Shown here: piece by piece, positions 2,148 through 16,012 of the stretch | Numbering within the stretch: position 1 is the first letter of the stretch | How the letters are laid out: every line of letters begins with the position of its first letter | Virus record (IMG/VR): IMGVR_UViG_3300023371_000071 | Strand: one strand, 5' to 3' | Source of the DNA: a virus | Taxonomy: Duplodnaviria; Heunggongvirae; Uroviricota; Caudoviricetes | Length of the DNA stretch: 19,254 nt | Made by a program: the position numbers and the translations under genes | The notes under the pieces: generated by a model | Told to the model about the DNA's origin: nothing | What the model saw: the letters and a program-made list of their open reading frames with translations, nothing else | The model's database searches: none

Positions 2148-2516
2148 ATGACTACTATCAATGTGAAGAATGAGAAGCTGACCTACGTGACCGCCCTGAC
2201 CTACGCCATTGAGAACGGCAACCTGCCCACCGAGATCGCGGAAAAGCTGATTGCCCTGCGTACTCAGCAGGAGAAGCGTAACAGCGGTGAGAAGAAGCCG
2301 ACCAAGGTTCAGGAAGCCAACGTTGGCATCAAGCAGGTTATCCTGACTGCCCTTGAGGGTCAGGAAGCCAAGACCGTAAGCGAGATTCAGACCCTTGCTC
2401 CCGAGCTGGGCGAGCTGAGCAATCAGAAGGTTGCAAGCCTTGTCCGTCAGCTTGTGGAAGAGGGCAAGCTGACCCGAATCGAGGAGAAGCGCAAGGCGTA
2501 TTTCCGCCTTGCCTGA
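2148..2516 (+). CDS. winged-helix domain protein, family A copy 1
   Basis: AGAAAGAGGT RBS; C-terminal TVSEI..LSNQKVASLVRQLVEEGKLTRIEEKRKAYF helix-turn-helix plus beta-wing pattern. Confidence 0.8.
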   Translation: MTTINVKNEKLTYVTALTYAIENGNLPTEIAEKLIALRTQQEKRNSGEKKPTKVQEANVGIKQVILTALEGQEAKTVSEIQTLAPELGELSNQKVASLVRQLVEEGKLTRIEEKRKAYFRLA

Positions 2517-2563
2517 CCCTCGCGGGGTGGTGAAAAAAACTTTCACCACCCCGAAAAAACCCC

Positions 2564-2592
2564 TTGACAACCTGCCTATCCTGTGCTATAAT
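2564..2592 (+). promoter_or_regulatory. sigmaA promoter P4
   Basis: TTGACA-17-TATAAT, TGTG extended -10. Confidence 0.9.
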
Positions 2593-2637
2593 AGTATCAA
2601 CGAAAGGGCAAGAGCCCGAACAACGAGGAGGATCCCC

Positions 2638-2895
2638 ATGAAGAACACCATCGCTGCCACCCTGATCGCCAACTACGGTTTCGAAGCCCAGTCCAACTGC
2701 CTGTTCACTGGCAAGGGCTCTTGGCTGGCCTCTCACGAGACCGTCAAGGTCACCTTCCACGGTGACATGGTCACCATCGACCACTACCGCTTCTTCTGGG
2801 ATGGCGGTGATGTGGAGTGGGAACGCTCCACGGTGGTCACCTGCCACCTCTCCCGACTGTGGGAGAACCTCCCCGAGTGGGTGCTCAGAGCCTGA
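2638..2895 (+). CDS. hypothetical protein (85 aa)
   Basis: GAGGAGG RBS before ATG 2638; the longer ORF call runs through promoter P4. Confidence 0.8.
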   Translation: MKNTIAATLIANYGFEAQSNCLFTGKGSWLASHETVKVTFHGDMVTIDHYRFFWDGGDVEWERSTVVTCHLSRLWENLPEWVLRA

Positions 2896-2911
2896 GCCCC
2901 ACTCTTTTTTT
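2875..2911 (+). terminator. intrinsic terminator overlapping stop codon
   Basis: GAGTGGG-T-GCTCAG/CTGAGC-CCCACTC then T7. Confidence 0.8.
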
Positions 2912-2917
2912 ATTCGC

Positions 2918-2965
2918 CGGCGCGTGGGCGGGCGCTGCGCTTGCCCACTCGCCGAATTTCCGCGA
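2918..2965. repeat. GC-rich hairpin + TTTCCGC element, copy b
   Basis: Stem CGGCG.GTGGGC/GCCCAC.CGCCG, CGGGCG at the loop, AATTTCCGCGA tail. Confidence 0.65.
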
Positions 2966-3013
2966 GGAGCACCAGCCAGCAAAAAATAATTTGAAAAACT
3001 TGCAAAAAAGGTA

Positions 3014-3042
3014 TTGACAAATCATCCCGAATCTGCTATAAT
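3014..3042 (+). promoter_or_regulatory. sigmaA promoter P5
   Basis: TTGACA-17-TATAAT. Confidence 0.9.
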
Positions 3043-3092
3043 TAAACCATCGAAAGGGAACACAGAGTCCCAACAGAAAGGAAGTTACTACT

Positions 3093-3344
3093 ATGATGAC
3101 TGCCAAAGAAGCTAAGACCATGACCACCAACTACCTGACCGCCGAAGCTGACAAGCACCTGCAGAAGATTGAAGACACCATTCAGATCTATGCCAGCAAG
3201 GGCAACACCTCCATGTATTACAGCAATGGTCTCAGCGGTGCCGACCCTCGCATCCAGTCCAAGGTATACAACACTATGGTTGAAGCAGGTTACAAGGTTC
3301 GTTGGTGTGAATCCAGCCTGCACATCAGCTGGGCAGATGCCTAA
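3093..3344 (+). CDS. small hypothetical protein, family C (TAxE...A.KG...GYKV...ISW)
   Basis: AAAGGAAG RBS; motif shared with 17301-17645, 18427-18840 and repeats in 13187-14878. Confidence 0.8.
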   Translation: MMTAKEAKTMTTNYLTAEADKHLQKIEDTIQIYASKGNTSMYYSNGLSGADPRIQSKVYNTMVEAGYKVRWCESSLHISWADA

Positions 3345-3363
3345 AAAAAGTTGCTCAGAGGGG

Positions 3364-3392
3364 TTGACAAATCCCTCTGAGCATGGTATAAT
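3364..3392 (+). promoter_or_regulatory. sigmaA promoter P6
   Basis: TTGACA-17-TATAAT; -35 in loop of inverted repeat 3352-3362/3373-3383. Confidence 0.9.
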
Positions 3393-3429
3393 AAGTACAT
3401 CAAAAGGAACAAGAAAGGAAGTAACTACA

Positions 3430-3768
3430 ATGACTAAGAAGATTTCTCTGAATGACTGGACCTACATCGGCAAGTACAATCCTGCGGCCAAGTGGCTTCG
3501 TCCCCTCTGCTCCTACTCTCTGACCGAAGCTGGTGCCTATTCTGCAGATGGCAACCCCGACTATCGCCGCGATTGCAAGATTAGCTGGCCTGTGTATCTG
3601 CTCCTGTTCCTGCCTGTGCATCTACTTCAGTTGCTGGTGTGCCTGTGGGATGGCGGCTTGAAAGAATTTGAAATTGCAAGTCGCCACATTGGGCATGATT
3701 ACATCACTGCACATGGCGACAACAGCGGACGCTATCAGATGGCAAAAGAAATTTGGGAAAAGGCTTGA
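3430..3768 (+). CDS. hypothetical protein with one hydrophobic segment (112 aa)
   Basis: AAAGGAAGT RBS before ATG 3430; WPVYLLLFLPVHLLQLLVCLW; its TGA lies within the TTGACA of P7. Confidence 0.8.
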   Translation: MTKKISLNDWTYIGKYNPAAKWLRPLCSYSLTEAGAYSADGNPDYRRDCKISWPVYLLLFLPVHLLQLLVCLWDGGLKEFEIASRHIGHDYITAHGDNSGRYQMAKEIWEKA

Positions 3769-3793
3769 CAAAGCCTTTCCCCTGTGGTATAAT
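3765..3793 (+). promoter_or_regulatory. sigmaA promoter P7
   Basis: TTGACA-17-TATAAT, TGTG; inverted repeat AAAGGCTT-GACA-AAGCCTTT. Confidence 0.9.
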
Positions 3794-3821
3794 AAATGTA
3801 TCAAATGAAGGAGTGATAAAC

Positions 3822-3995
3822 ATGGGTATCATGATCGGTGCTATTGTTGCAAGTCAGACCGCTATGAGAGTGGCGGCAATGAATGCCATGAAAAAAAATC
3901 TGGAAAATCAGAAAAAAGCTGTTGACAAACAGCCCAAAGTGTGCTATACTAATAATGTCGAAAGGGACAACAGAAAGGAAGGTAAACAAAAATGA
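3822..3995 (+). CDS. short ORF (57 aa) whose second half reads through promoter P8
   Basis: AAGGAG RBS before ATG 3822, downstream of P7; stop overlaps next start (ATGA). Confidence 0.5.
   Translation: MGIMIGAIVASQTAMRVAAMNAMKKNLENQKKAVDKQPKVCYTNNVERDNRKEGKQK
3922..3950 (+). promoter_or_regulatory. sigmaA promoter P8
   Basis: TTGACA-17-TATACT, TGTG; inverted repeat GCTGTT-GACA-AACAGC. Confidence 0.85.
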
Positions 3996-4306
3996 TGAAG
4001 ATCGAAATGACCAAACACGCTATGGTAGACCGCATTGACCGCTGTGTGTACATTGCACAGAAGATTGGCTTCGGTGACAAGATTGTGTGCGAAGGTTTCC
4101 GCAGAGACAAGGGCACTCGGCAGTGCCTGTCCGAAACTGGTGTGCTGATTGTCAAGATGCCGGAAAGCGAAACCATGGTGACTGCTTACATTCCCACTCT
4201 TGAACAGGCTGGCATGATTTACAAGTCCGCAGGCTTGCACATGCCGAACTGGATGGCACAGAAAATCAAGAAGAATCAGAAGTATGCAAAGGGCTGTCCT
4301 GTGTGA
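3992..4306 (+). CDS. hypothetical protein (104 aa)
   Basis: AAAGGAAGGT RBS, own promoter, stop inside a 14-bp hairpin 4285-4318. Confidence 0.85.
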   Translation: MMKIEMTKHAMVDRIDRCVYIAQKIGFGDKIVCEGFRRDKGTRQCLSETGVLIVKMPESETMVTAYIPTLEQAGMIYKSAGLHMPNWMAQKIKKNQKYAKGCPV

Positions 4307-4341
4307 CAGCCCTTTGCAAGAAAAAAATTTTCAAAAAGGTA

Positions 4342-4370
4342 TTGACAACCTGCCGAACCTATGGTATAAT
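4342..4370 (+). promoter_or_regulatory. sigmaA promoter P9
   Basis: TTGACA-17-TATAAT, TATG extended -10. Confidence 0.9.
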
Positions 4371-4402
4371 AAGTACAACGAAAGACGAAAGGAAGTAACA
4401 CA

Positions 4403-4876
4403 ATGAACACTCTGCTTCTCACCTTCATCCTGCTGAACATCGCCAATGTTATCATTCAGACCGTCAAGAGCATTGCAACCATCAAATGCGGAAAAGGGGT
4501 CGCCGCGATTGTTAACGCTGTTGCCTTCGGACTCTACACTGTGGTCACTGTCTACATGATGTGCGATTTGCCTCTTGCCACCAAGGCGCTGATTGTCGCA
4601 GGCTGTAACCTTGTGGGTGTGTATGTGGTCAAGTATTTTGAAGAAAAGGCAAGAAAAGACAAACTCTGGAAAGTCGAAGTCACCATTCCTGCCGAACAAG
4701 CAGAACAGATGATTGAAGATTGCAAATACTATGGATTCACTTACAACTATGTGAACATCGAAAAGTATTTCTTGTTTAACTTCTATTGTCCCACTCAGCA
4801 GGACAGTCTGAATGTTAAGAAACTGTTACAGAGCTATGATGCAAAATACTTTGTGACTGAAAGCAAAAATTTGTGA
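4403..4876 (+). CDS. membrane protein resembling UPF0316 (DUF5698/DUF2179) family
   Basis: Three hydrophobic segments (IANVIIQTVKSIATI; AAIVNAVAFGLYTV; AGCNLVGVYV) plus a soluble alpha/beta C-terminal domain. Confidence 0.6.
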   Translation: MNTLLLTFILLNIANVIIQTVKSIATIKCGKGVAAIVNAVAFGLYTVVTVYMMCDLPLATKALIVAGCNLVGVYVVKYFEEKARKDKLWKVEVTIPAEQAEQMIEDCKYYGFTYNYVNIEKYFLFNFYCPTQQDSLNVKKLLQSYDAKYFVTESKNL

Positions 4877-4884
4877 GAAAGGGG

Positions 4885-4913
4885 TTGACAACCCCTCTCA
4901 CATGTGGTATAAT
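4885..4913 (+). promoter_or_regulatory. sigmaA promoter P10
   Basis: TTGACA-17-TATAAT, TGTG; -35 centred in inverted repeat 4872-4902. Confidence 0.9.
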
Positions 4914-4943
4914 AAGTACATCAAAAGGAAAGAGGTAATGAAC

Positions 4944-5216
4944 ATGAGAGCAACTGGTATTGTAAGAAGAGTCGATGAACTGGGTCGCATTGTTATCCCC
5001 AAGGAAATCCGCAGGAACCTGAACATCAAAGAGGGCGATCCCCTTGAGATGTATCTGGACAAGGAATACGGGCTTGTGATGAAGCCCTACCATGAAGAGC
5101 ATCTGAGCTTTGACCGCCTGCAGTCTGAGTGGGAAAGCCTGAGCACCGCAAAGCGGCAGGAACTGATCTGCGAAATGGTGAACCACCTCGATGACCCCAT
5201 CCGCTGTGAAGAGTGA
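4944..5216 (+). CDS. AbrB/SpoVT-family DNA-binding domain protein (N-terminal domain only)
   Basis: MRATGIVRRVDELGRIVIPKEIRRNLNIKEGDPLEMY matches the SpoVT/AbrB swapped-hairpin signature; AGAGGT RBS 7 nt before ATG 4944. Confidence 0.9.
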   Translation: MRATGIVRRVDELGRIVIPKEIRRNLNIKEGDPLEMYLDKEYGLVMKPYHEEHLSFDRLQSEWESLSTAKRQELICEMVNHLDDPIRCEE

Positions 5217-5236
5217 CCGCAAGGTCACTCTTTTTT
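5211..5236 (+). terminator. intrinsic terminator
   Basis: GAGTGACC-GCAA-GGTCACTC then T run. Confidence 0.85.
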
Positions 5237-5276
5237 CGCCCGCGCGCCCACGAGCGTGGGCGCCGGTTTTCCCGCG
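5237..5276. repeat. GC-rich hairpin + TTTCCCGC element, copy c
   Basis: Stem 5244-5251/5256-5263, TTTTCCCGCG tail; CGGGCG present on the opposite strand at 5237-5242. Confidence 0.55.
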
Positions 5277-5285
5277 TATCCTTCC

Positions 5286-5314
5286 ATTATACCATTTTTC
5301 GAGCAATTTGTCAA
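5286..5314 (-). promoter_or_regulatory. sigmaA promoter (leftward, antisense to AbrB-like gene)
   Basis: Minus strand TTGACA(5314-5309)-17-TATAAT(5291-5286) with TG extension. Confidence 0.8.
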
Positions 5315-5362
5315 TAGGCAAACTGCACAAACTTTTTCCCGAAACTTTGTGCAATCTGTCAA

Positions 5363-5391
5363 TAGACATTTGGGGTCTGATACTGTATAAT
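5363..5391 (+). promoter_or_regulatory. sigmaA promoter P11
   Basis: TAGACA-17-TATAAT followed by the AGATAATGTC start context seen at P14. Confidence 0.75.
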
Positions 5392-5472
5392 AGATAATGT
5401 CAGGAGGGCACTGAGGTGATGCCGAGTGAAGCTGGTCGACAAAACTTCTTCAAAAAAAGTTTTGAAAAACCC

Positions 5473-5501
5473 TTGACAAAGCCGCCAAGATGTGATATAC
5501 T
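5473..5501 (+). promoter_or_regulatory. sigmaA promoter P12
   Basis: TTGACA-17-TATACT, TGTG. Confidence 0.85.
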
Positions 5502-5593
5502 GATAGTGTCAAGAGGGCAAGGAACTGCAAGAGGAACCCTTCGGCGCTGAAGCGCACAGGATAAAAACTCAAAAAAAAAGTTTCAAAAACCCC

Positions 5594-5622
5594 TTGACAA
5601 ACACCGCAAGGTGTGGTACAAT
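5594..5622 (+). promoter_or_regulatory. sigmaA promoter P13
   Basis: TTGACA-17-TACAAT, TGTG. Confidence 0.85.
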
Positions 5623-5703
5623 AAGGATGTCGAAAGGGCAAGGCGCCAGCCCCACTCGACAGTCACTAACACCAATCGACAAGAAAGAAAGAGGTAATGA
5701 ATC

Positions 5704-6057
5704 ATGGAAAAGATGACTTATGTGAAGGCTCTGGAAGTTGCTCTGAACTGCGAAGCTCTGTCTGCCGAAGTGCGTGAGAAGCTGTCTGCTCTGCGTGACC
5801 AGCAGGTCAAGCGTAACTCTGCGGAGAAGAAGCCCACCAAGACCCAGCAGGCGAATGAGGGCGTGAAGTCCCATGTGCTGGAAGTGCTGGCTTCCTGCGC
5901 CCAGCCTGTGACTGTGTCTGAACTGATGCAGGCTGATGAAGAGCTGTCCCAGCTCTCCAATCAGAAGGTCGCTTCGCTGGTTCGCCAGCTGGTGGAAGCT
6001 GGCAAGGTTCAGCGACTGGAAGAGAAGCGCAAGGCTTACTTCACTCTGGTGAAGTGA
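5704..6057 (+). CDS. winged-helix domain protein, family A copy 2
   Basis: AGAAAGAGGT RBS; KKPTK.Q.ANEG.K and LSNQKVASLVRQLVEAGK...EEKRKAYF motifs. Confidence 0.85.
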   Translation: MEKMTYVKALEVALNCEALSAEVREKLSALRDQQVKRNSAEKKPTKTQQANEGVKSHVLEVLASCAQPVTVSELMQADEELSQLSNQKVASLVRQLVEAGKVQRLEEKRKAYFTLVK

Positions 6058-6117
6058 CCTTGCGGGGCAGGGGTAAAACCCTGCCCCATCTTCCCGAAAA
6101 AAAGTTTCAAAAAGGTA

Positions 6118-6146
6118 TTGACAAACAGCCCAACATCTGCTATAAT
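6118..6146 (+). promoter_or_regulatory. sigmaA promoter P14
   Basis: TTGACA-17-TATAAT. Confidence 0.9.
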
Positions 6147-6190
6147 AGATAATGTCGAAAGGCAATAGAACAAGAAAGAGGTAATGCAAA

Positions 6191-6847
6191 ATGAATCGCC
6201 ACTTCTACATTCTGATGGATACTGAAACTGCCAACGGTCTGGATTGCCCCATCAACTACAATACCGCATGGTCTGTAATTGACCAGCACGGCAACACCTA
6301 CGAAAACTTCAATTTCATCAACCGCGACATTTTCTTTGACCGTCCCGAACTCATGCAGTCCGCATACTACGCCCACAAGATTCCGCAGTATCTTGAACAG
6401 ATTGAACGCGGCGAAATCAAGGTTGCAACGTGGTACGAAATCCGCAAGGCGTTCCGCGACTGTTGCGAAAAGTACAACATCAAGGCAGTTATCGCCCACA
6501 ATGCCCGATTCGACTATCGCTCCTGCACGATGACCCAGCGTTACGAAACCTGCTCCAAGTATCGCTACTTCTTCCCGAAGGGCGTTGAAATTTGGGACAC
6601 GCTGGCAATGGCTCGTGATGTGGTCGCCCCGATGCCCACTTACCGCAAGTGGTGCGAAACCAACGGTTTCACCTTGAAGAACGGACAGCCCCGACTGACC
6701 GCCGAAATCCTGTTCCGCTTCATCTCCAAGGACATTGACTTTGTGGAAGAACACAAGGCAATGGAAGATGTGAACATCGAAAAGGAAATCTTTTGGTACT
6801 GCATCCGCAAGCACAAGGCAATGCGTCGAAAGGCTTTCAAGGACTGA
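6191..6847 (+). CDS. DEDDh (DnaQ/RNase T-like) 3'-5' exonuclease
   Basis: Exo I MDTETA, Exo II AHNARFD, WDTLAMA, Exo III HKAMEDV. Confidence 0.9.
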   Translation: MNRHFYILMDTETANGLDCPINYNTAWSVIDQHGNTYENFNFINRDIFFDRPELMQSAYYAHKIPQYLEQIERGEIKVATWYEIRKAFRDCCEKYNIKAVIAHNARFDYRSCTMTQRYETCSKYRYFFPKGVEIWDTLAMARDVVAPMPTYRKWCETNGFTLKNGQPRLTAEILFRFISKDIDFVEEHKAMEDVNIEKEIFWYCIRKHKAMRRKAFKD

Positions 6848-6855
6848 AAAAGTCC

Positions 6856-6884
6856 TTGACAGCCGCCCCAAAGTGTGATATAAT
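6856..6884 (+). promoter_or_regulatory. sigmaA promoter P15
   Basis: TTGACA-17-TATAAT, TGTG; inverted repeat TCAAGGACT/AGTCCTTGA spans upstream stop and -35. Confidence 0.9.
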
Positions 6885-6909
6885 AAGTACATCAAAAGGA
6901 AAGAGGTAA

Positions 6910-7152
6910 TTGACCATGACTCAGTTTCAGTATGAAGTAAATGTTTACGAAGAAGACCACGTCCTGTCCTGCAAGACCAACAATCCCCGCACCGCCTGCC
7001 AGTTTATGCTGGATCATGCCGACTGCTATCTTGATGTCATCAACGGTTTTACTGGTGAAGTGCTCGCTGTGATGAACCATGAGAATGCTTACTGTCAAGA
7101 GGATTTCGGGCTGATGCTTCTCGGCTATATGACCGAAACAATTTGGGGCTGA
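6910..7152 (+). CDS. hypothetical acidic protein (start TTG 6910 or ATG 6916)
   Basis: AGAGGT RBS, own promoter, terminator follows. Confidence 0.8.
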   Translation: MTMTQFQYEVNVYEEDHVLSCKTNNPRTACQFMLDHADCYLDVINGFTGEVLAVMNHENAYCQEDFGLMLLGYMTETIWG

Positions 7153-7178
7153 CCCTTCGGGGTTGGCTCTTTTCTTTT
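7146..7178 (+). terminator. intrinsic terminator
   Basis: GGGCTGACCC-TTCG-GGGTTGGCTC (UUCG loop) then TTTTCTTTT. Confidence 0.85.
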
Positions 7179-7181
7179 GAG

Positions 7182-7218
7182 CCGGTCGTGCGCGGGCCAC
7201 ACGACCGGTTTTTCCGCA
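7182..7218. repeat. GC-rich hairpin + TTTCCGC element, copy d
   Basis: Stem CCGGTCGTG/CACGACCGG, CGGGC loop, TTTTTCCGCA tail. Confidence 0.65.
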
Positions 7219-7267
7219 ATGGGCAGATCTACCAAGAAATTCGCTGAAAATTTGTGCATTTTGCCAA

Positions 7268-7296
7268 TAGACATTTTATCCCGAAAGTGGTATACT
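7268..7296 (+). promoter_or_regulatory. sigmaA promoter P16
   Basis: TAGACA-17-TATACT with TG; context homologous to P11. Confidence 0.75.
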
Positions 7297-7388
7297 AATA
7301 ATGTCAGGAGGGGAGGCCAAGAAACCGAGAGGCGGCCGACTCTCAGGAAGTAGAGGAAGAAAACTTGAAAAAAAGTTTCCGAAACCTC

Positions 7389-7417
7389 TTGACAAACCAC
7401 TGACCCTGTGGTATAAT
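7389..7417 (+). promoter_or_regulatory. sigmaA promoter P17
   Basis: TTGACA-17-TATAAT, TGTG. Confidence 0.9.
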
Positions 7418-7421
7418 AAGG

Positions 7422-7518
7422 GTGTCAGGTGAGGGAAGCAACTGACAGTCGCTTAGCCAAGGTAGCCTGCGGAGTGGGTGCGCAACACTCCATGGTTAGA
7501 CCCTGTGCAAGCGAAGCG
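7422..7518 (+). ncRNA. putative ~95-nt structured RNA between P17 and P18
   Basis: No RBS-led ORF; stems TGTCAG/CTGACA, CGCTT/AAGCG, TAGCCA/TGGTTA, GGAGTG/CACTCC. Confidence 0.45.
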
Positions 7519-7540
7519 AAAAAAAAGTTTGCGAAACCCC

Positions 7541-7569
7541 TTGACAAACAACTGAATAGGTGCTATAAT
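7541..7569 (+). promoter_or_regulatory. sigmaA promoter P18
   Basis: TTGACA-17-TATAAT with TG. Confidence 0.9.
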
Positions 7570-7614
7570 AAGAGTGTCCTAAGGGACAAGACAAAAAGAA
7601 AGAGGTAATGAATC

Positions 7615-8022
7615 ATGATGAAGTTCACTAAGAAGGTTGCTCTGGAAGTCGCTATCAATGCTATCGAGAACTCCACCCTGCCCAACTGGTCTTTCACTGA
7701 GGGCGAGGAAACCCTGACCATCTCCAAAGCGGAAGCCATCGAGAAGCTCCAGAAGATGATTGAGCAGTTGGAGGCTAAGTCCAACGCTCCCAAGAAGCCC
7801 ACTAAGGTGCAGGAAGCCAACGAGGGTGTCAAGGACATCATCAAGGCTGTGCTGGAAGGTCAGTCCCCCATGACTGTCTCCGAAATCATGACCCACTCTG
7901 CGGAACTGAGTGCCCTGTCCAACCAGAAGGTCGCCTCTCTGGTGCGCCAGATGGTCGAGGCTGGCGTGCTGGTTCGCACTGAGGAAAAGCGCAAGGCTTT
8001 CTTCGCCCTCGCTCAGGGCTGA
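7615..8022 (+). CDS. winged-helix domain protein, family A copy 3
   Basis: AGAAAGAGGT RBS; KKPTKVQEANEGVK and LSNQKVASLVRQMVEAG..EEKRKAFF motifs. Confidence 0.85.
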   Translation: MMKFTKKVALEVAINAIENSTLPNWSFTEGEETLTISKAEAIEKLQKMIEQLEAKSNAPKKPTKVQEANEGVKDIIKAVLEGQSPMTVSEIMTHSAELSALSNQKVASLVRQMVEAGVLVRTEEKRKAFFALAQG

Positions 8023-8026
8023 GCCT

Positions 8027-8052
8027 GAGACCCCGAAAGGGGTCTCTTTTTC
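8027..8052 (+). terminator. intrinsic terminator
   Basis: GAGACCCC-GAAA-GGGGTCTC then T run. Confidence 0.9.
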
Positions 8053-8057
8053 TTGGG

Positions 8058-8094
8058 CTGCTCGCGGACGGGCGCCGCGAGCAGTTTTCCGCGA
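8058..8094. repeat. GC-rich hairpin + TTTCCGC element, copy e
   Basis: Perfect 10-bp stem CTGCTCGCGG/CCGCGAGCAG, loop ACGGGCG, TTTTCCGCGA tail. Confidence 0.7.
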
Positions 8095-8143
8095 TACACT
8101 AGACCCACCGAAAAATTTTCTTGAAAAATCGGCATTTTAGGGG

Positions 8144-8172
8144 TTGACAGATTATCCCGAATCTGATATAAT
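8144..8172 (+). promoter_or_regulatory. sigmaA promoter P19
   Basis: TTGACA-17-TATAAT with TG; spacer nearly identical to P5. Confidence 0.9.
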
Positions 8173-8199
8173 AGAACCATCGAAAGGAGCTGATCTGAA

Positions 8200-8340
8200 A
8201 TGTTCACCTGTCCTGCACTCTGTATCCTTGGTCTGGTTCTCTCTATGTGGGGATTCATCTGGGGTATCTTCTTCCAGGAATTCCTGTGGCTGTGTGTAGC
8301 TGGTTTTGCGCTGGGCTGGATGTTTTCTAAAGATTGTTGA
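8200..8340 (+). CDS. 46-aa membrane micro-protein (not in ORF track)
   Basis: AAAGGAG RBS; MFTCPALCILGLVLSMWGFIWGIFFQEFLWLCVAGFALGWMFSKDC; fills the P19-P20 interval. Confidence 0.75.
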   Translation: MFTCPALCILGLVLSMWGFIWGIFFQEFLWLCVAGFALGWMFSKDC

Positions 8341-8349
8341 AATTAGGGG

Positions 8350-8378
8350 TTGACAAACTGCCCCAACTGTGTTATAAT
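8350..8378 (+). promoter_or_regulatory. sigmaA promoter P20
   Basis: TTGACA-17-TATAAT, TGTG. Confidence 0.9.
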
Positions 8379-8403
8379 AATAATGTCGAAAGGAGCTGAT
8401 AGC

Positions 8404-8877
8404 ATGGAGTTCAAGGAAGCTATCAAGGCTTACGCTAAAATGATGGGCGTAAGCGAATCGGAAGCGAAGCAGGATGCCGAAGCTACCATCAAAATGTGGA
8501 TGACCACCGAAGGCATGACAAGGGAATTTGCGGAAGCCAGCTGGATTGAAGAGCAGGAAGATGCAGACCCCGAATTGCTGAAACAGATGGAAAAGCAGGC
8601 GAAGGAATCTGGCGCAACAAAGGTCAAGGCAAAGCGTGCCCCGAATTACAGTCTGGAAGGACAGAAAAAGCGGGAACGCAAGCCCAACGAAGAAAAGCGT
8701 TCACTGATTGAACAAATCGCCAATGCAATGGAAAGTTTTCATCACATGGATGAAGAAATTCCTGCTTCTGGTGTGGATTTGGTCGAAATTGTGAATCCTG
8801 AACGAGAAATCACCTTCAAAATTGGTGAAAATTGCTACAGTGTGACCCTTACCTGCCATCGCAAGCCGAAAAAATGA
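8404..8877 (+). CDS. hypothetical protein, family B (paralogue of 1592-1996)
   Basis: AAAGGAG RBS before ATG 8404; RERKPNEEKRSL, VNPERE, YSVTLTCHRKPKK. Confidence 0.85.
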   Translation: MEFKEAIKAYAKMMGVSESEAKQDAEATIKMWMTTEGMTREFAEASWIEEQEDADPELLKQMEKQAKESGATKVKAKRAPNYSLEGQKKRERKPNEEKRSLIEQIANAMESFHHMDEEIPASGVDLVEIVNPEREITFKIGENCYSVTLTCHRKPKK

Positions 8878-8880
8878 CAA

Positions 8881-8906
8881 AATGGGCGAGAAATCGCCCA
8901 TTTTTT
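8881..8906 (+). terminator. intrinsic terminator
   Basis: TGGGCGA-GAAA-TCGCCCA then T6. Confidence 0.85.
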
Positions 8907-8972
8907 GCTGTTTTTGTCCGGTTTTGTGCGGTTTTACTAGAAAAATCGCATAATTTTTGTTGATTTTGCCTA

Positions 8973-9001
8973 TTGACAAATGCGGCGGGCTGTGGTATAA
9001 T
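8973..9001 (+). promoter_or_regulatory. sigmaA promoter P21 (no downstream ORF)
   Basis: TTGACA-17-TATAAT, TGTG. Confidence 0.85.
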
Positions 9002-9023
9002 AATAGAGGGGAGTTGAGCGGGC

Positions 9024-9055
9024 CGGTCGCGGGCGATCCGGACCGAATTTCCCGA
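9024..9055. repeat. GC-rich hairpin + TTTCCCG element, copy f
   Basis: CGGTC/GACCG stem, CGGGCG in loop, AATTTCCCGA tail. Confidence 0.5.
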
Positions 9056-9286
9056 TCGGACCTGTATATGCAAATTTTTCTCTTGAATGCAACTATATGC
9101 AACTAATTACCTTGAATCCCGAAACCCCGGTCGGGCCCCGCCGATCGGATAACCGATCGGCTATCATATGCGCTCGTGCGCGGTGAAAGCGATTCCTCCA
9201 GCGCCTCACAAATCAATTCTCTCTGCCCCTCAGCGTAGATCGAACATACCCCGCGCGTTCTCTGGAACATGCATATGCTGCGGAAT

Positions 9287-9315
9287 TTGACAAATTGAAT
9301 TAAATATGATATAAT
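9287..9315 (+). promoter_or_regulatory. sigmaA promoter P22
   Basis: TTGACA-17-TATAAT, TATG. Confidence 0.85.
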
Positions 9316-9347
9316 ATTTAAAAAAGGCACCTCCGCCGACCGGGAAA

Positions 9348-9376
9348 TTGACAACATAATTTTTTTATGATATAAT
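9348..9376 (+). promoter_or_regulatory. sigmaA promoter P23
   Basis: TTGACA-17-TATAAT, TATG. Confidence 0.85.
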
Positions 9377-9429
9377 AAAAGTAGAAGGATATAGGCCGAC
9401 CGGAAAGTCGGCAACAAGAGGAAGGAGAT

Positions 9430-9458
9430 TTGACAAATAAACAAATATATGATATAAT
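9430..9458 (+). promoter_or_regulatory. sigmaA promoter P24
   Basis: TTGACA-17-TATAAT, TATG. Confidence 0.85.
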
Positions 9459-9674
9459 ACGGTGGGGCATATTTTTACCGATCGGTAATAGATCAAGAGG
9501 AGCAAGAGTAAAGAATAGCAAGTGGACGGGCTGGCATATGCGGCATAATATATTGAACTTAATTACGGACACGAGGACGGATAAATGAGTAGAGTAGTCT
9601 AGGCCCGATCGGGCCACCCCACTTCCAGAATTTTCCCAGTTTTTACAATTTTATCTATCCTCATCTTCTCTCCC

Positions 9675-9713
9675 TTGATTTTTATAAAAAAATTTGCTAT
9701 AATATATATGTAA
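9675..9713 (+). promoter_or_regulatory. class II promoter
   Basis: TTGATT-17-TATAAT then ATATATGTAA, as at 12239, 15691 and 18040. Confidence 0.8.
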
Positions 9714-9794
9714 AGAATGAGGGAATCGCTTCGCTCTTCCCTCTATCCAATCCTGGGGTCGCTCCCCAGTGAATATCGAAAGGAGACTCCTTAC

Positions 9795-10400
9795 ATGAAT
9801 ACTTACGAGAATGAAATGATGGCTATGCTTCGTCAGGGTATGTCTATGGACGAGGTTATGAACAAGATGCGCACTCAGCTGGCCAATGCACAGGCCCAGA
9901 TCAAGGCTGAAGAGGAAGCTAAGCGTAAGCAGGCTGAAGCTAAGCGCAAGGCCGATAATGAGACCAAGGCTCAGACTCTGGTTGATCTTTGCAACCGTGC
10001 AATGGAGAATAAGCTGACCGCAGCCGATGTCGCTTATGTGCAGCAGCTCTATGCTACTCAGAAGTATCCTGAGCATGCTCGCATGTTCGCTCAGATGTTT
10101 GATGCCAATGAAGTGGATTCCACTATCAAGATGGCAGTTGGCACTATGAGCGCTCTGACTCCTCTGGTCCATCTGGCTGGTGCCAAGGATTGGGATGAAG
10201 TTCTTGATGAACTTGATGCCAAGGAAATCAAGAATGCTCACGCTCAAGCCAATGCAAAAGTGGATGAAGATCTGAAGGAAATGCAGGACCTCTTCGGGCT
10301 TCTCTTTGGCCAGGCAAAGCCTGTCCAGAAGCCCGCTCAGCCTACTCCCAAGTCTGACGACACCATTCTGCGCGACTTCGTAAATTCCATCAATAAGTGA
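9795..10400 (+). CDS. hypothetical coiled-coil protein (201 aa)
   Basis: AAAGGAG RBS before ATG 9795; A/E/K/Q-rich helical N-terminus. Confidence 0.85.
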   Translation: MNTYENEMMAMLRQGMSMDEVMNKMRTQLANAQAQIKAEEEAKRKQAEAKRKADNETKAQTLVDLCNRAMENKLTAADVAYVQQLYATQKYPEHARMFAQMFDANEVDSTIKMAVGTMSALTPLVHLAGAKDWDEVLDELDAKEIKNAHAQANAKVDEDLKEMQDLFGLLFGQAKPVQKPAQPTPKSDDTILRDFVNSINK

Positions 10401-10431
10401 AAGAAGGGCTAACGCCCTTCTTTCTTTTTTT
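10399..10431 (+). terminator. intrinsic terminator between convergent genes
   Basis: GAAAGAAGGGC-TAAC-GCCCTTCTTTC then T run. Confidence 0.85.
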
Positions 10432-10435
10432 ATAT

Positions 10436-10467
10436 AAATAAGAAAAAGGGAGGCTAATGCCTCCCTT
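10436..10467 (-). terminator. intrinsic terminator (leftward)
   Basis: AAGGGAGGC/GCCTCCCTT stem 10446-10467, T-rich tail on minus strand. Confidence 0.8.
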
Positions 10468-10927
10468 ATACCTTGCGCTTACCATATTTCTTGGCTTTCT
10501 CTTTTCCTTCATTCACAAGTTCTTGCAATCTTGCTGCTCCATCAGATTCATAATTTGCAAGATTCTCTTCACTCTCTCGAATAAGAGCCATCAATTTCTT
10601 CTCACCCTGTGCAAATAGAGCTTCAACAGTCGCTCTCTCAGTTACAACAGTAGAAGTCTGCTTTGCAGCCTCCTCTTTCTTATTGCCACGAATCGCAGTA
10701 CCATATACAATACTATAATGCAGTGGCTTCAAGTCATCTACAGACTTCAGATTAGGAGTAACCTGACCAATTATCATACCACCATTAATCAGTCTACGAT
10801 CTTCACCAATCATCCACATAATATCATTGCGCGCTCTTCCCTGTTCACTAATCTCAAACAGAAACTCTCTCTTCGGGATTACATAAACTTCCTTACCTCT
10901 ATAAGCACCAAGACAATCATATGCCAT
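10466..10927 (-). CDS. hypothetical protein (153 aa)
   Basis: AAGGAGGA RBS on minus strand; terminator downstream. Confidence 0.85.
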   Translation of the reverse strand: MAYDCLGAYRGKEVYVIPKREFLFEISEQGRARNDIMWMIGEDRRLINGGMIIGQVTPNLKSVDDLKPLHYSIVYGTAIRGNKKEEAAKQTSTVVTERATVEALFAQGEKKLMALIRESEENLANYESDGAARLQELVNEGKEKAKKYGKRKV

Positions 10928-10953
10928 AACTCATTTTCCTCCTTAAATTTGAG

Positions 10954-11010
10954 TTTTGAAATCATTTTTTCATTTGTTCCTCGCACCATGCGATTTTGAA
11001 ATCATTTTTT
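10954..11010. repeat. 17-bp direct repeat TTTTGAAATCATTTTTT x2
   Basis: Copies at 10954-10970 and 10994-11010. Confidence 0.85.
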
Positions 11011-11049
11011 GAAAACATTGCCCCACTTATATACGAGGCGGGCGTATAA

Positions 11050-11092
11050 GGTATGGTATACCTCGGAGCGAAGCGGAGAGGTATACCATACC
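11050..11092. repeat. perfect 15-bp inverted repeat
   Basis: GGTATGGTATACCTC / GAGGTATACCATACC around loop GGAGCGAAGCGGA. Confidence 0.9.
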
Positions 11093-11127
11093 GCCTATTT
11101 TATTCTATTCTATAGGTTACTATTTTT

Positions 11128-11154
11128 TGTACAAAACTCAGAAATTTTTGTACA
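11128..11154. repeat. TGTACA-N15-TGTACA site (left copy)
   Basis: Inverted near-copy of 11848-11874. Confidence 0.75.
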
Positions 11155-11175
11155 TTTCATCTAAAATCCGATCGG

Positions 11176-11769
11176 TCACTCGGGCAACACATTAGATACT
11201 TTGGTAATCACAATATTCGTCTTATCATATTCTACTTGCTGCAATTCATATGTAATCAATCCTAATCTCCGCAAGATATCAAGGATATCATTGATTACAA
11301 CATTATTAGAAGTAGTTGATGTTGCTAAGCCAATGCGATTCTTTAACTCTTTATGAGTTACAACAAATGATGTTTCACCATTGCCTAAATAACGATTCAA
11401 GAGATAGACAAATAGGTTTACAGTATTGCGGTTTAAAGAGTTTACAAGCTGTCTCAAAGTAGTAAATGGAACCAACATTGCAGAAGATGCTTGCAACTCT
11501 TTTAAGATATATACTTTTCTATCGTCATCTTCTTCTAATAGACCCATTTTTACCAATTGTTTTACATATTTAGATGCGCTACGACGATCCATTCCAGTTT
11601 CATTACCAATATTTACAAATGTAGCAACTTTATATGAAACGCTTCTTGCATCTTGACTATCCCAATCAGATTTACATTGAAACCATGCATAAACTAAATC
11701 ACAATAATTTCTATCTGCCATAATCCCAGCTTCCTTCGGAACTTGTCTTGAATTCTTCTAAATGTTCAA
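11176..11769 (-). CDS. tandem winged-helix DNA-binding protein, replication-initiator-like; starts at TTG 11769 if TAG 11760-11758 is read through, otherwise ATG 11721
   Basis: GMDRRSASKYVKQLVKMGLL and THKELKNRIGL...ILDILRRLGLI helix-turn-helix patterns; GGAGGAGGTG RBS before in-frame TTG. Confidence 0.7.
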
Positions 11770-11847
11770 TGGTTTTCACCTCCTCCCACGAGATATGAAA
11801 ACCAAATATAGATAATTGTACAACCTTGACCAAACATCATAGATTCG

Positions 11848-11874
11848 TGTACAAAATTTTCTAAGCGTTGTACA
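11848..11874. repeat. TGTACA-N15-TGTACA site (right copy), third TGTACA at 11817
   Basis: Reverse complement matches 11128-11154 at 23 of 27 positions by manual alignment. Confidence 0.75.
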
Positions 11875-11945
11875 TTTTTAGGAATTTTCTCTACTATTCC
11901 CAAGTCTTTAGATTTTTTCCTAAAAATTTTTACCAAAAATAACTA

Positions 11946-11969
11946 AGGGCTGTGCACGAACACAGCCCT
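11946..11969 (-). terminator. probable terminator (leftward)
   Basis: AGGGCTGTG/CACAGCCCT stem; TAGTTATTTTT follows on minus strand. Confidence 0.65.
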
Positions 11970-11974
11970 CAAAC

Positions 11975-12163
11975 TTAAGCCTTCTTGTTCTCGTCGAGGA
12001 CTGCCTGAAGGTCACGTTCAAACTTGGGAGTCACAGTAAAGATCCAACACAGAAACTCTGGCTTGCTAGGATTCGGCATAGTACCAGCAGGGACATTACC
12101 CATTTCAACCAACTTCATTGCAATCTTACGAGTATAAATAATCTTATTAGTAGTATCAGCCAT
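11975..12163 (-). CDS. small protein resembling DUF5659 family
   Basis: IYTRKIAMKLVEMG....PNPSKP...WIF...PKF pattern; GAGGA RBS; own class II promoter. Confidence 0.6.
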   Translation of the reverse strand: MADTTNKIIYTRKIAMKLVEMGNVPAGTMPNPSKPEFLCWIFTVTPKFERDLQAVLDENKKA

Positions 12164-12238
12164 AATATATTCCTCTTTTCCGGCTGCTTCGCAGCTCGCT
12201 TATATTTGTTAAAGTTCGAACTCTTCGCTCAACCTTTA

Positions 12239-12277
12239 TTACATATATATTATAGCAAAAATTTTTACAAAAGTCAA
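12239..12277 (-). promoter_or_regulatory. class II promoter (leftward)
   Basis: Minus strand TTGACT-17-TATAAT-ATATATGTAA with TG. Confidence 0.85.
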
Positions 12278-12298
12278 CTGGTTCGGTCTAGTTTTCGA

Positions 12299-12327
12299 TT
12301 GACTTTTCAAAAAAAATATGATACAAT
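12299..12327 (+). promoter_or_regulatory. promoter for folD operon (divergent from previous)
   Basis: TTGACT-17-TACAAT, TATG. Confidence 0.8.
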
Positions 12328-12353
12328 AAAAGAAAAAGGAGCTAATTATTGAT

Positions 12354-13187
12354 ATGACCCCCAAGATTATTGATGGCAAAGCAATTGCGGCAAGAGTTGA
12401 ACAAGAGTGTAAACACACTATCGAAGCATTCAACCTCCAGCCTAAACTTGTTGTAATTACTACCGACGAAGCTGACGCTGCCTCTAAAGTATACATGCGG
12501 AATAAGCATCGTGCAGCTGAACGTGTCGGTATCCTATATGAAGAAATTATTCTTAATAAATATGCGGACATGACAATTATGCTATCTACTATTCGTCAGC
12601 TTAACGCTGATCCTACGGTACATGGCATTATCGTACAGCTGCCATTACCAGCTCGTTTCGATGTGCCGACTATTCAAGCTGAAATTGATCCTGATAAAGA
12701 CGTTGATGGGTTCCATCCCGACTCAGCATTTGACCCTTGTACGCCCGATGCTGTGATGCATATGCTTCTGGATGACGAAAAAATGACTCTTGACGGAAAA
12801 CACGCCGTTGTCATTGGCCGTTCCAATATCGTTGGAAAACCTCTCGCTCGTCTCCTTCTCCAAGAGAATGCGACTGTTTCCGTCTGTCATTCTCATACTG
12901 ATTCAATTTTACTTGAGCAGCTTTGCAAGAGCGCTGATTACGTGTTCTGCGCCGCAGGCGTCCCGGGGCTCGTGAGACCCGAAATGTTGGCGTACGGCAC
13001 AGTGCTCGTCGACATTTCTATCAATAGAGATATTGAAGGAAAGTTGTGCGGCGATGCCCATCCGGATTGTTATCCACTATGTTCTGCATATACTCCCGTT
13101 CCTGGCGGTGTTGGACCACTTACCGTATCCCGTCTCATGTGGCACACCGTTACCTCTGCACTAATGGCAAGAAAGGATGAAACTTAA
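12354..13187 (+). CDS. folD: bifunctional methylenetetrahydrofolate dehydrogenase/cyclohydrolase
   Basis: IIDGKAIA, YxxxK, HGIIVQLPLP, KDVDGFHP, PCTP, VVIGRSNIVGKP, TPVPGGVGPLTV. Confidence 0.95.
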   Translation: MTPKIIDGKAIAARVEQECKHTIEAFNLQPKLVVITTDEADAASKVYMRNKHRAAERVGILYEEIILNKYADMTIMLSTIRQLNADPTVHGIIVQLPLPARFDVPTIQAEIDPDKDVDGFHPDSAFDPCTPDAVMHMLLDDEKMTLDGKHAVVIGRSNIVGKPLARLLLQENATVSVCHSHTDSILLEQLCKSADYVFCAAGVPGLVRPEMLAYGTVLVDISINRDIEGKLCGDAHPDCYPLCSAYTPVPGGVGPLTVSRLMWHTVTSALMARKDET

Positions 13188-14878
13188 TGGCAACCACTCG
13201 TACTGAAACAGATATTAAACTGTATACAAACGAAGAGTTGCAAGATATTCAAGATAATTCACATTCTGGTTCAGCAACAGATTCAAAAGGTAATATTCAA
13301 GCAGTTCTTTCTGCGATTATTACCTACACTAAAGCTGCGGCTGAAGCTAATCGTAATTATGTAGATATTTTGTGGTCTTCTATTAAAACAGGTAATTATA
13401 CCGATAAAATCCTTGGTTGGATTGAAATGAAACCCGAAAACTCATTGGATGAACACAAATATGGTATTGCAGACACCCGCTGGGCTGTCGATATTGGTGG
13501 TCGTATTACTGAAAGCGGATGTAGATGGATTTTTGTGTATAACCGCGACTCTGAAGAACCTTGCGGAATTCGTATTTCTTGGTGGGAAGAAAATGAAGAT
13601 GAGACTGATCCAATTGAAGAAGCTTGGACCAACAATCCTTACATCATTCTTCCTAAGAATAAATATGCGTTTCCCACTGCTTCTGAAGTAAATACTATTA
13701 TTGTACAACCAAATGCAATGCAAGTTAATAAGGACTTTATTAACAATATTTTTAGCACAATCAATTATCATATTCAAAATGCTGCAAAAAATAGTAATAA
13801 CAATGTTCGAATTCCTTGGGAGACATTTGGTAATTCTGCGGAAGTGCAAAAAATGTTTGTTGTTACATCAAGAGATATAACAATAGTAGAATCAGAAAGT
13901 CTATCTGCGCTCGGTGGTTGTTTTAGCTATGGAGAACGCTCTGATGGTCATTATCCAAGAGCAACAAATCGTGCATTTACCGTTGATGACTTTGATCCAC
14001 TGGAGATGGGCTTCTTTAATGATGCTACCTATTTGGAAGATAATTATACTGCCTTTGCACCTGCAACCAGTTTTACATTGTATCAAATTTTAACAGAAAT
14101 TTTAGGATATGGTGTAAGCTATTCTGCTAGTGTTGATCTTCAGAATGGTCAAGCTTTTTGTATGGGTCTGTTAATCACTTGGGATAAAGAAAATTCCTAT
14201 GCAACAAATACAAGCAATGCTAATTATCTTGCAAATGAAATTTTTGCTGATGAATCTCAGCAATATAGAGATTCTTTAACTTCAGTACTATCTTGGCCTG
14301 ATGGTACTGTACCAACTTTGGAACATTATATTGCAGCAAATAAAAAGAATAATACCTCTTGGCTAAAAACTTTTGTTGATTTAACAGTTAGTAAAATGAA
14401 TACTGCTTTTGCTAAAGGAGATCGTGCAATTCATATTCTATGGTCAGAAGTCAGTTCTTCTTATGCCGATGAAGTAAAACGAGCTTGGCAAAATGGTTCA
14501 TGTGAATATGACGGTTATATTGAAGCAGCTGTACCAAGAGGAAGAGATCTTGGAGTTGGAACTCAAACTTCTGTGGCTAGTGCTTTTAATCAAATTATGG
14601 ACGCAGAACATTATTCTGCTGGTTCTACCAATCCTCCAACTTATGCTTATGGATATATCCGCTATAAAAAAGATGGTGACACCAGTGGTGGAGGTAGTGC
14701 TAATTCTACAGCCATTGAAGATATTACTCACCCTGATTCCATTGGCTTAGCTATTACCCTGTATGGATATGTAGCAAGTTCTCCACAATCTGGTAATACT
14801 GCTGATGCTCAAACTGCTGATGCTATTCGTGATATTCAGCGGATTTGGTTAGCAAAAGAGGCCCCTAAAGCAAAGTAA
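13187..14878 (+). CDS. hypothetical protein (563 aa) with two or three expanded family C-like repeats
   Basis: Long ORF coupled to folD (TAATG); repeats end GIRISWWEE, LLITWDKE, LAITLYG. Confidence 0.8.
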   Translation: MATTRTETDIKLYTNEELQDIQDNSHSGSATDSKGNIQAVLSAIITYTKAAAEANRNYVDILWSSIKTGNYTDKILGWIEMKPENSLDEHKYGIADTRWAVDIGGRITESGCRWIFVYNRDSEEPCGIRISWWEENEDETDPIEEAWTNNPYIILPKNKYAFPTASEVNTIIVQPNAMQVNKDFINNIFSTINYHIQNAAKNSNNNVRIPWETFGNSAEVQKMFVVTSRDITIVESESLSALGGCFSYGERSDGHYPRATNRAFTVDDFDPLEMGFFNDATYLEDNYTAFAPATSFTLYQILTEILGYGVSYSASVDLQNGQAFCMGLLITWDKENSYATNTSNANYLANEIFADESQQYRDSLTSVLSWPDGTVPTLEHYIAANKKNNTSWLKTFVDLTVSKMNTAFAKGDRAIHILWSEVSSSYADEVKRAWQNGSCEYDGYIEAAVPRGRDLGVGTQTSVASAFNQIMDAEHYSAGSTNPPTYAYGYIRYKKDGDTSGGGSANSTAIEDITHPDSIGLAITLYGYVASSPQSGNTADAQTADAIRDIQRIWLAKEAPKAK

Positions 14879-14890
14879 GGAGGATCTTAA

Positions 14891-15694
14891 ATGAAATATT
14901 GTACTTCATATTTCCAGAGTGAACCTGTTCGTCAAAAGATTGATGAATTACGCTTTTCTACCGCTGCCATGAATGACGCACTCGGCTATGCCGAGCGTCA
15001 TTCAGACAAGCGGGTTATTATTGAATTTCTAGATTTACACGCAGATCATATTCCTACGATTGAAAAACTGCATAAGCTGCATCAAGAACAACCCAATATC
15101 TACTATGATTTCTATAATTTACATGATCTTGTAGAATATTCTCGCGCATTTGAACGTCAAGTAGATTATATTATGTACCATCAGCCCGCATTAACTTGGG
15201 GACTTGTGCAAATCTTACTTTATTACAAAGTTTGTGATATTGTTATTAGTGAACCTCTTACCTTTAACATGAATGAACTTGAAAAGAATGTGCATCCTTA
15301 TGCTCGTATTCGTATTCGTCCTTACATTGCAAAACCAGAAATTGCAAGAGGGATTGAAACAGATTCTGGTATCCACCATTTCTGGGTACTACCCCAGCAT
15401 ATGCACTTTTATGAACCATATGTTGATGTAATTGATTTGCTTGATGATAATATTGTGCGCGAAACAGCTTTGGTAAGTACTTATACATCTAATAAAGAGT
15501 TCTCTGCGCGACTGGATACTCTTATTGAAGGTGTAGAGTGCGGTATTGGTGCATCTTTTATCGACGATAAATTTGTACAGCGTCGTCTCACTTGCGGACA
15601 AAGCTGTTTAAAAAACAGCAATTATTGCCATTACTGTGATCAATATGTAAAAATGTATGATGTAATTGCCGCACAACGTAAATCTTCTAATTGA
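14891..15694 (+). CDS. peptidase U32-like / Cys-cluster protein
   Basis: AAGGAGGA RBS; FWVLPQHMHFYEPYVDVIDL resembles the F.RPEDL..Y..Y.D motif; C-terminal CGQSC-x5-CHYC. Confidence 0.5.
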   Translation: MKYCTSYFQSEPVRQKIDELRFSTAAMNDALGYAERHSDKRVIIEFLDLHADHIPTIEKLHKLHQEQPNIYYDFYNLHDLVEYSRAFERQVDYIMYHQPALTWGLVQILLYYKVCDIVISEPLTFNMNELEKNVHPYARIRIRPYIAKPEIARGIETDSGIHHFWVLPQHMHFYEPYVDVIDLLDDNIVRETALVSTYTSNKEFSARLDTLIEGVECGIGASFIDDKFVQRRLTCGQSCLKNSNYCHYCDQYVKMYDVIAAQRKSSN

Positions 15695-15729
15695 TTTTTT
15701 TCAAAAAATATTATATAATATATATGTAA
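15691..15729 (+). promoter_or_regulatory. class II promoter
   Basis: TTGATT-17-TATAAT-ATATATGTAA. Confidence 0.8.
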
Positions 15730-15775
15730 GATTGAGAGAGGGAATAAAACCTCACTCGGAAAGGAGAAGTCGAAG

Positions 15776-16012
15776 ATGTTCCGAACATTTTGTGAAGCTA
15801 TGGAACAAGAGCCAGCACTGACTCTCACCATGCTTGAAGAATTTGGTCATACTACTACTCGCACTGGTAAACTGAATCGTGCGGCAGCTCGTATCCGCCA
15901 AGACCTTGAAATGTACGGAGATTTCAGTCTTGAAGATGCTCTCGTAGCTTGCGATCTCGATCAGCTTACGGAAGCTGAAATCAAGTATCTGGAAGGACGA
16001 TTGAACTCATGA
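15776..16012 (+). CDS. hypothetical protein (78 aa)
   Basis: AAAGGAG RBS; ATGA overlap with next gene. Confidence 0.8.
   Translation: MFRTFCEAMEQEPALTLTMLEEFGHTTTRTGKLNRAAARIRQDLEMYGDFSLEDALVACDLDQLTEAEIKYLEGRLNS

Follow-up and report, generated by a model that had tools for sequence, protein, structure and literature searches.

A conserved single-copy non-coding junction with clustered CCGRYCGG boxes at the early gene border of large gut phages

At the border between the early and the later genes of a large gut phage lies a gene-free stretch of 0.7 kb, here called the junction, which is a real, conserved, single-copy non-coding control region. What is new, as judged by sequence comparison, is that this single-copy junction is conserved as three modules (A, C and D) in more than 20 related contigs. 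We predict that it is an operator array at the early-to-middle switch, a reading to which we give slightly less than an even chance. The clade consists of gut phages of approximately 165–195 kb that read TAG as glutamine in their later genes and use the standard code in the early module. A timing switch must act at the border of these two programmes, and the junction is the best conserved non-coding locus there. It offers defined sites (CCG-RY-CGG, YATATGC and an invariant core of 35 nt) together with candidate binders, all of which can be used for dissecting how uncultivated phages time gene expression or start replication. The concept itself, a promoter–operator or origin-like region, is already familiar and involves no new principle.

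Genomic setting and related loci

The window, that is, the whole stretch of 19,254 nt analysed here, is the minus strand of positions 53197–72450 of a 168,738-bp IMG/VR record (linear, 88% complete), and all coordinates are given in window orientation. TAG-rich late genes run leftward from approximately −5500. The gene for TerL (−7248 to −5506), which the portal gene adjoins, lies on the other strand relative to the junction and approximately 14.5 kb from it, and its nearest relatives belong to large Firmicute siphoviruses, namely the Enterococcus phages VRE9_4, H1 and EF1, Geobacillus E3, SPbeta (YonF) and Lactococcus 949. A back-to-back promoter pair approximately 20 bp apart (window −3239 to −3164; L123 3164–3239) marks the divergence of late (leftward) and early (rightward) transcription, and coincides with the global GC-skew extreme. 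The early module is made up of small rightward genes to the right of −3200, each preceded by a perfect sigma-A promoter. Its last gene ahead of the junction is p175, which encodes 164 aa (8383–8877, plus strand) and holds the same place in 7 close relatives; an intrinsic terminator (8879–8904, plus strand) closes the early gene array. On the other side of the junction, a 201-aa coiled-coil gene (9795–10400, plus strand) is the sole gene between the tandem promoters and a terminator at approximately 10405–10430. The 201-aa protein has no family match, and a pattern search for it gave no viral relatives. The p175 protein likewise matched no known family; it has 396 homologs at E ≤ 1e-10, from gut metagenomes and in many cases on contigs of 125–190 kb, and its gene can conveniently serve as a marker of this phage clade.

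More than 20 related loci were collected by way of the neighbouring tandem winged-helix gene, FolD, the module D pattern and homologs of the 164-aa gene, and three near-complete genomes of 165–193 kb are among them. The junction was found in every related locus that reaches that far, always with a single shared architecture. For the close-relative alignment eight loci were used, in which the p175 homolog is 78–94% identical to that of the window. Cultured phages gave no match to the junction, either by blastn or by the exact double-box pattern, and phAss-1, a TerL relative cut open by PhageTerm, is without a homologous junction. The absence of any credible ORF from the junction, claimed in a preliminary description of this DNA, holds under table 11 and also with TAG read as Gln, a check that was repeated because the phage reads TAG as glutamine; gene callers leave the same gap empty in 6 of the 7 close relatives showing it.

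Boxes, promoters and conserved modules

Both strands were scanned for CCGAYCGG, and the matches start at 9052, 9127 (opposite orientation), 9141, 9153, 9336, 9396, 9478 and 9605, with an outlier at 11168. This bears out the earlier count of eight boxes in approximately 560 bp plus one at 11168; dinucleotide shuffles of the window average 0.47 matches and never exceed 5. The whole record (168,738 bp) contains about 13–14 CCGRYCGG sites, 8 of them within 9052–9612, and a genome-wide count of the octamer, which the preliminary description had proposed as a check, places 5 of the 6 copies of CCGATCGG in the junction. The box is also the top enriched 6-, 7- and 8-mer of the junction. In the relative G001, 5 of the 7 CCRATCGG sites of the genome fall within 610 bp at the equivalent place. 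Box type differs by lineage: the window has CCGRYCGG, several lineages have GCGATCGC or CCGATCGC, and G001 has CCAATCGG, all five clustered variants of which are on one strand, the transcribed sense strand. The isolated box (11168–11175) abuts the stop codon of the tandem winged-helix gene and is kept only in the closest relative, L091.

Four promoters, starting at 8973, 9287, 9348 and 9430, match TTGACA-17-TATAAT at 12 of 12 positions, and each carries a TG extension. The leftmost, P21 (8973–9001, plus strand), has a perfect sigma-A consensus and is present in 8/8 close relatives. A variant box had been noted 22 nt past its −10; the distance is correct, but the element is the left arm of the hairpin at 9020–9044 and not a box. 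A palindrome, GCATATGC, lies immediately 5′ of P22 (9271–9278) and has a second copy at 9534–9541. The P22 unit (9287–9343, plus strand) consists of the promoter (9287–9315) and a box (9336–9343) that is kept in 5/8 close relatives and ends 4 nt ahead of the −35 of P23, an arrangement also seen in L007. In the P23 unit (9348–9412, plus strand) the promoter (9348–9376) is followed by a box (9396–9403), kept in 7/8 close relatives, that doubles as the left arm of a small hairpin (9395–9412). Module C (9430–9485, plus strand) combines P24 (9430–9458), a GGGG leader and the box at 9478–9485, and is found in 8/8 close relatives and in nine distant lineages. Measured from the last −10 base, the boxes of P22, P23 and P24 begin at 21, 20 and 20 nt, in agreement with the 20–21 nt reported before. 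In a survey of the window together with 13 related loci, a box occurs within 45 nt of 17 of the 115 sigma-A-like promoters, and in 15 of these 17 cases it begins 19–24 nt past the −10. The promoter-proximal boxes correspond to about +13 to +21, inside the open-complex footprint.

Among the eight close relatives the boxes at 9052, 9478 and 9605 are retained in 8/8, those at 9141 and 9396 in 7/8, the one at 9336 in 5/8 and the one at 9127 in 3/8. The outer CCG/CGG triplets are unchanged in every retained orthologous box of these relatives, the central pair switches among AT, AC and GT by transitions only, and the asymmetric form flips its orientation at one orthologous site. Invariant outer triplets, a variable centre and the orientation flip together fit two symmetric CCGR half-sites read on DNA.

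The promoter signature had been described as different on either side of the junction, and the class change indeed falls exactly at this stretch. Plus-strand sites of the TTGACA class number 18 and extend from −908 to 9430; those of the TTGATT class, which has a conserved ATATATGTAA start region, number 21, of which 20 lie at or to the right of 9675. The first of these (9675–9713, plus strand) reads TTGATT-N14-TGnTATAAT followed by ATATATGTAA. The TTGATT class is very uniform, with an A-rich spacer of 14 nt, and further sites are found at 15691–15729, 18040–18078 and out to approximately 66780 in window coordinates. Its ATATATGTAA start region is similar to the YATATGC(AA) motifs found in the junction.

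Module A begins with a GC hairpin (9019–9045, plus strand) supported by compensatory changes: RNAalifold on eight distant lineages gives 11 pairs, two of them with both sides changed, and the same holds in close relatives. The core that follows (9046–9125) contains GAATTTC, the first box (9052–9059), two copies of TATATGC (9065–9071 and 9094–9100) and the CCCGAAAC motif (9110–9125). Across relatives the module consists of the hairpin, GAATTTC, the box, YATATGC motifs, a TTTC-N-GAAA element and CCCGAAA, in an order kept in eight distant lineages, and it includes an invariant core of approximately 35 nt. The best-conserved part of the whole junction, 9065–9125, is not a box, and within it positions 9080–9099 are 99–100% identical in the eight close relatives. 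To the right of the core are the poorly conserved box in opposite orientation (9127–9134, minus strand) and a further element (9141–9171) made up of a box pair (9141–9148 and 9153–9160) and a CATATGC (9165–9171). The pair is kept in 6–7 of the 8 close relatives, with a spacing of 14 there versus 12 in the window.

Module D (9565–9625) comprises three ACGRNN repeats, CTAG, a 14-bp palindrome and a C-rich flank. The palindrome (9602–9615) is, as described before, a widened form of the last box. CTAG-N2-CCGATCGG is invariant in an alignment of eight lineages (A2), and the module is kept in 8/8 close relatives with variation limited to the central pair. The window and its close relatives have module D ahead of the 201-aa gene. 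Most lineages instead have it at a convergence point, past this gene and the terminator that follows it, which leaves the gene between modules C and D. Around the module D palindrome the plus strand flips sharply from purine-rich to pyrimidine-rich (9486–9600 versus 9616–9675; L008 7195–7370), and these two arms pair no better than shuffled sequence.

The long conserved elements of the junction are unique in the genome. RNAalifold on distant and close relatives finds no conserved fold beyond the module A hairpin, folding of the P24 unit gives z values of 0 and −0.5 for the window and L008, an Rfam scan of 8300–10300 at E ≤ 1 returns chance-level matches only, and no tRNAs were found. As unique elements that, one hairpin excepted, are without a conserved RNA fold, they point to sites that act at the DNA level.

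Several readings of the motifs themselves were rejected. Because CGATCG shows no genome-wide avoidance (24 observed versus 19 expected), we dropped the reading of CGRYCG, CATATG and GTATAC as type II restriction sites. ParB/parS or Noc binding was rejected as well, with no ParB_N in the record and no enrichment of NBS-like half-sites. The motif search gave no DnaA, Spo0A or LexA-type boxes of note, and a literature search for the octamer gave nothing relevant. Near modules A and D, the relatives G002 (L146 13800–14860, minus strand), L096, L098 and L108 carry extra repeated palindromes, which are GTATAC units, including one perfect 16-bp palindrome, that are absent from the window. Given that the palindromes beside the boxes differ between relatives and window, different lineages appear to have exchanged one set of short palindromes for another in this region.

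A predicted operator array and its candidate binders

We infer that the CCG-RY-CGG palindromes and YATATGC motifs would be operators for a phage-encoded dimeric DNA-binding protein, for which the small winged-helix family encoded just 5′ of the junction is the best candidate. Bound to boxes that are centred near +17 of the tandem sigma-A promoters and end 4 nt short of the following −35, such a protein might repress or activate, and would most simply shut off or tune promoters predicted to read only into the 201-aa gene. The boxes of modules A and D may then be auxiliary sites for cooperative binding or looping.

The winged-helix family (110–135 aa) is present in every relative by tblastn, with window copies at 2148, 5704 and 7615. 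The copy of 117 aa (5704–6057, plus strand) is a candidate box binder, and a second paralog of 135 aa (7615–8022, plus strand) is nearest to the junction, one gene away. In L098, L108, L101 and L090 a copy ends 40–75 nt 5′ of module A. An alignment of 15 members (A4) has an invariant S-N-Q-K recognition helix and a basic KPTK arm. The AF2 model of the protein at 5704 (pLDDT 89.6) has Foldseek matches to ArsR/SmtB, MarR and PerR winged helices at modest E values of 3e-3 to 2e-2, and searches of the family profiles against PDB by sequence gave spurious or weak matches only. Alignment and model are suggestive of this family as the best candidate for binding the boxes, and adjacency is weak evidence because the module is crowded with paralogs.

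An operator array was one of three readings offered by the preliminary description, and it fits the fixed and conserved spacing, the selection on the outer triplets and the neighbouring winged-helix genes. It is further favoured by the concentration of 8 of 13 genome sites in 560 bp, with similar clustering in G001, by the narrow placement of 15 of the 17 promoter-proximal boxes, by half-sites of the CCGR type, by elements that are genome-unique and DNA-level, by an adjoining protein family with an invariant recognition helix and a modelled fold like that of the ArsR/MarR/PerR repressors, and by the change of promoter class exactly at the junction. However, 8 bp is a short palindrome for a dimer of winged-helix proteins, the boxes of modules A and D are away from promoters, and the five CCAATCGG variants of G001 share one direction, which is unexpected for a symmetric dimer. 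Moreover, the most conserved part (9065–9125) is outside the boxes, so the boxes alone cannot explain the constraint.

Phage early promoter/operator switches include lambda OR/OL with CI and Cro, phi29 A2c/A2b/A3 with p4 and p6, and the SPO1 early promoters with TF1. Like these, the junction has short repeated palindromes within the RNA polymerase footprint of strong tandem host-type promoters at a boundary between temporal classes, and genes for small DNA-binding proteins adjoin it. Unlike in these systems, the boxes are 3′ of the −10 (about +13 to +21) and not between or over the hexamers, the additional conserved motifs and the 35-nt invariant core have no counterpart, and the binder is a candidate only. 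In what was examined of the phage there are no signs of lysogeny, in contrast to phages with lambda-type switches.

Competing explanations

A transcription-activated or transcription-primed replication origin, also among the readings of the preliminary description, is in our judgement rather unlikely. Early promoters would then fire into a gene-free, AT-rich and repeat-laden stretch that has the boxes and YATATGC motifs as its initiator sites. A precedent is the Lactococcus Ceduovirus c2, whose ori, flanked by the early promoters PE1 and PE2, gives a non-coding transcript, PE1-T; the ori is located between divergent early and late blocks, and PE1-T needs its structure to function (PMC7150918). 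As in the Ceduovirus ori (c2, bIL67 and 923 types), a non-coding stretch of a Firmicute-type phage is bounded by early promoters that follow one another, match the consensus and drive gene-free transcription units. An origin would also suit a single-copy locus with several types of repeated motif that is better conserved than many flanking genes and has a purine-rich transcript region past P24. Unlike the c2 ori, it is found at the early/middle border, 12 kb from the divergence point (window −3200), and in contrast to PE1-T its transcript has no conserved structure beyond one hairpin, as also reflected in the folding z values near zero. In G000, G001 and G002 the cumulative GC skew reaches its global minimum where the early module starts and the late genes diverge, and then stays flat in a plateau with the junction at its far end; the junction is thus on the plateau at the minimum, but the extreme itself is 12 kb further left, at the module's opposite end, and since skew tracks gene direction the plateau is weak evidence for an origin. 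DnaA boxes were not found, and the sole initiator-like protein nearby, the tandem winged-helix protein (11176–11721), is flanked by TGTACA repeats and not by boxes. There is a slim chance that the boxes work at the RNA level, where short transcripts would carry them in their 5′ leaders for pairing, for processing or for recognition by an RNA-binding protein. Such a role would account for the fixed leader position, for the conserved GGGG with which the module C transcript begins, for the sense-strand placement of every CCAATCGG variant in G001 and for the restriction of central changes to transitions. However, the conserved helices do not involve the boxes, CCAAUCGG is incapable of self-pairing, one box is in opposite orientation with a flip at an orthologous site, and in most relatives module D lies past an intrinsic terminator, in a convergent gap.

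The remaining explanation, whose terminus and packaging parts were also raised in the preliminary description, is that the junction is a long-terminal-repeat boundary, a packaging site or a T5-like injection stop, so that the early module would enter first and the junction be its inner end; we consider this improbable. More specific still, and with even less in its favour, is the proposal that the early module would enter first or be terminally repeated and that the junction would mark its inner boundary, as a Gram-positive, TAG-recoded T5-like counterpart in which CCGRYCGG replaces DnaA boxes. In T5, the iss is a large untranslated stretch that closes the pre-early module on its inner side, has many repeats and palindromes and is better conserved than neighbouring genes; it is located inside a proven 10-kb terminal repeat and provided with paired DnaA boxes (Davison, 10.1101/866236). 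The architecture of the junction, a large conserved untranslated region of repeats and palindromes after the first-expressed genes, is strikingly similar. It differs in being full of promoters and without DnaA boxes (no TTWTNCACA between −4000 and 13000), and the TerL is of the SPbeta YonF/Enterococcus-phage kind. We examined 24 sequencing runs as Logan contigs, for which depths are contig depths and not read starts. In X7 the contig depth is 11–16 over 538–10393 versus 4.9–5.9 over 11518–19166, a difference of about threefold, with the same trend in X9, which would favour a terminus; one X7 contig spans 6881–10393 unbroken, however, which puts the step at approximately 10.1 kb or beyond, and in X11 the step is to the left of 8261 (5502–8170 versus 8261–18081). 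Over the samples, contigs of the early module are deeper than those of the genes on its right by a factor of about 1.8 to more than 4, and the position of the step varies by sample. A ratio that varies between samples, instead of being 2, fits co-occurring strains that share the early module, which is probably what the step reflects, and amplification or terminal redundancy may contribute. Contigs of several samples pass straight through the junction, and the step is outside 9020–9620. The left end of the module has no matching boundary, just the 20-bp gap between the divergent promoters, and three G001-type assemblies end at differing places. TerL, approximately 14.5 kb away on the other strand, is not in the adjacent position expected for a pac or cos site. 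The terminus and packaging part of the earlier inference has no support in these data. A joint of 9006 to 9675, with sides of 34 nt, probably stems from cross-matching of promoter repeats, and the low cover of the RNA run X24 over the junction is uninformative.

The tandem winged-helix gene (11176–11721, minus strand) has PHROG matches of the ScpB-, Rep- and DnaD-like kinds. It is flanked by phased TTTTTGTACA repeats (window 11100–11160 and 11810–11880), which are conserved in relatives (L090 and G002), with four copies in G002 (L146 13490–13560). Distinct from the boxes, these repeats could serve either for autoregulation or as an origin of the iteron type. An in-frame TAG lengthens the gene and its L008 homolog contains four TAG codons, which places the gene in the recoded programme.
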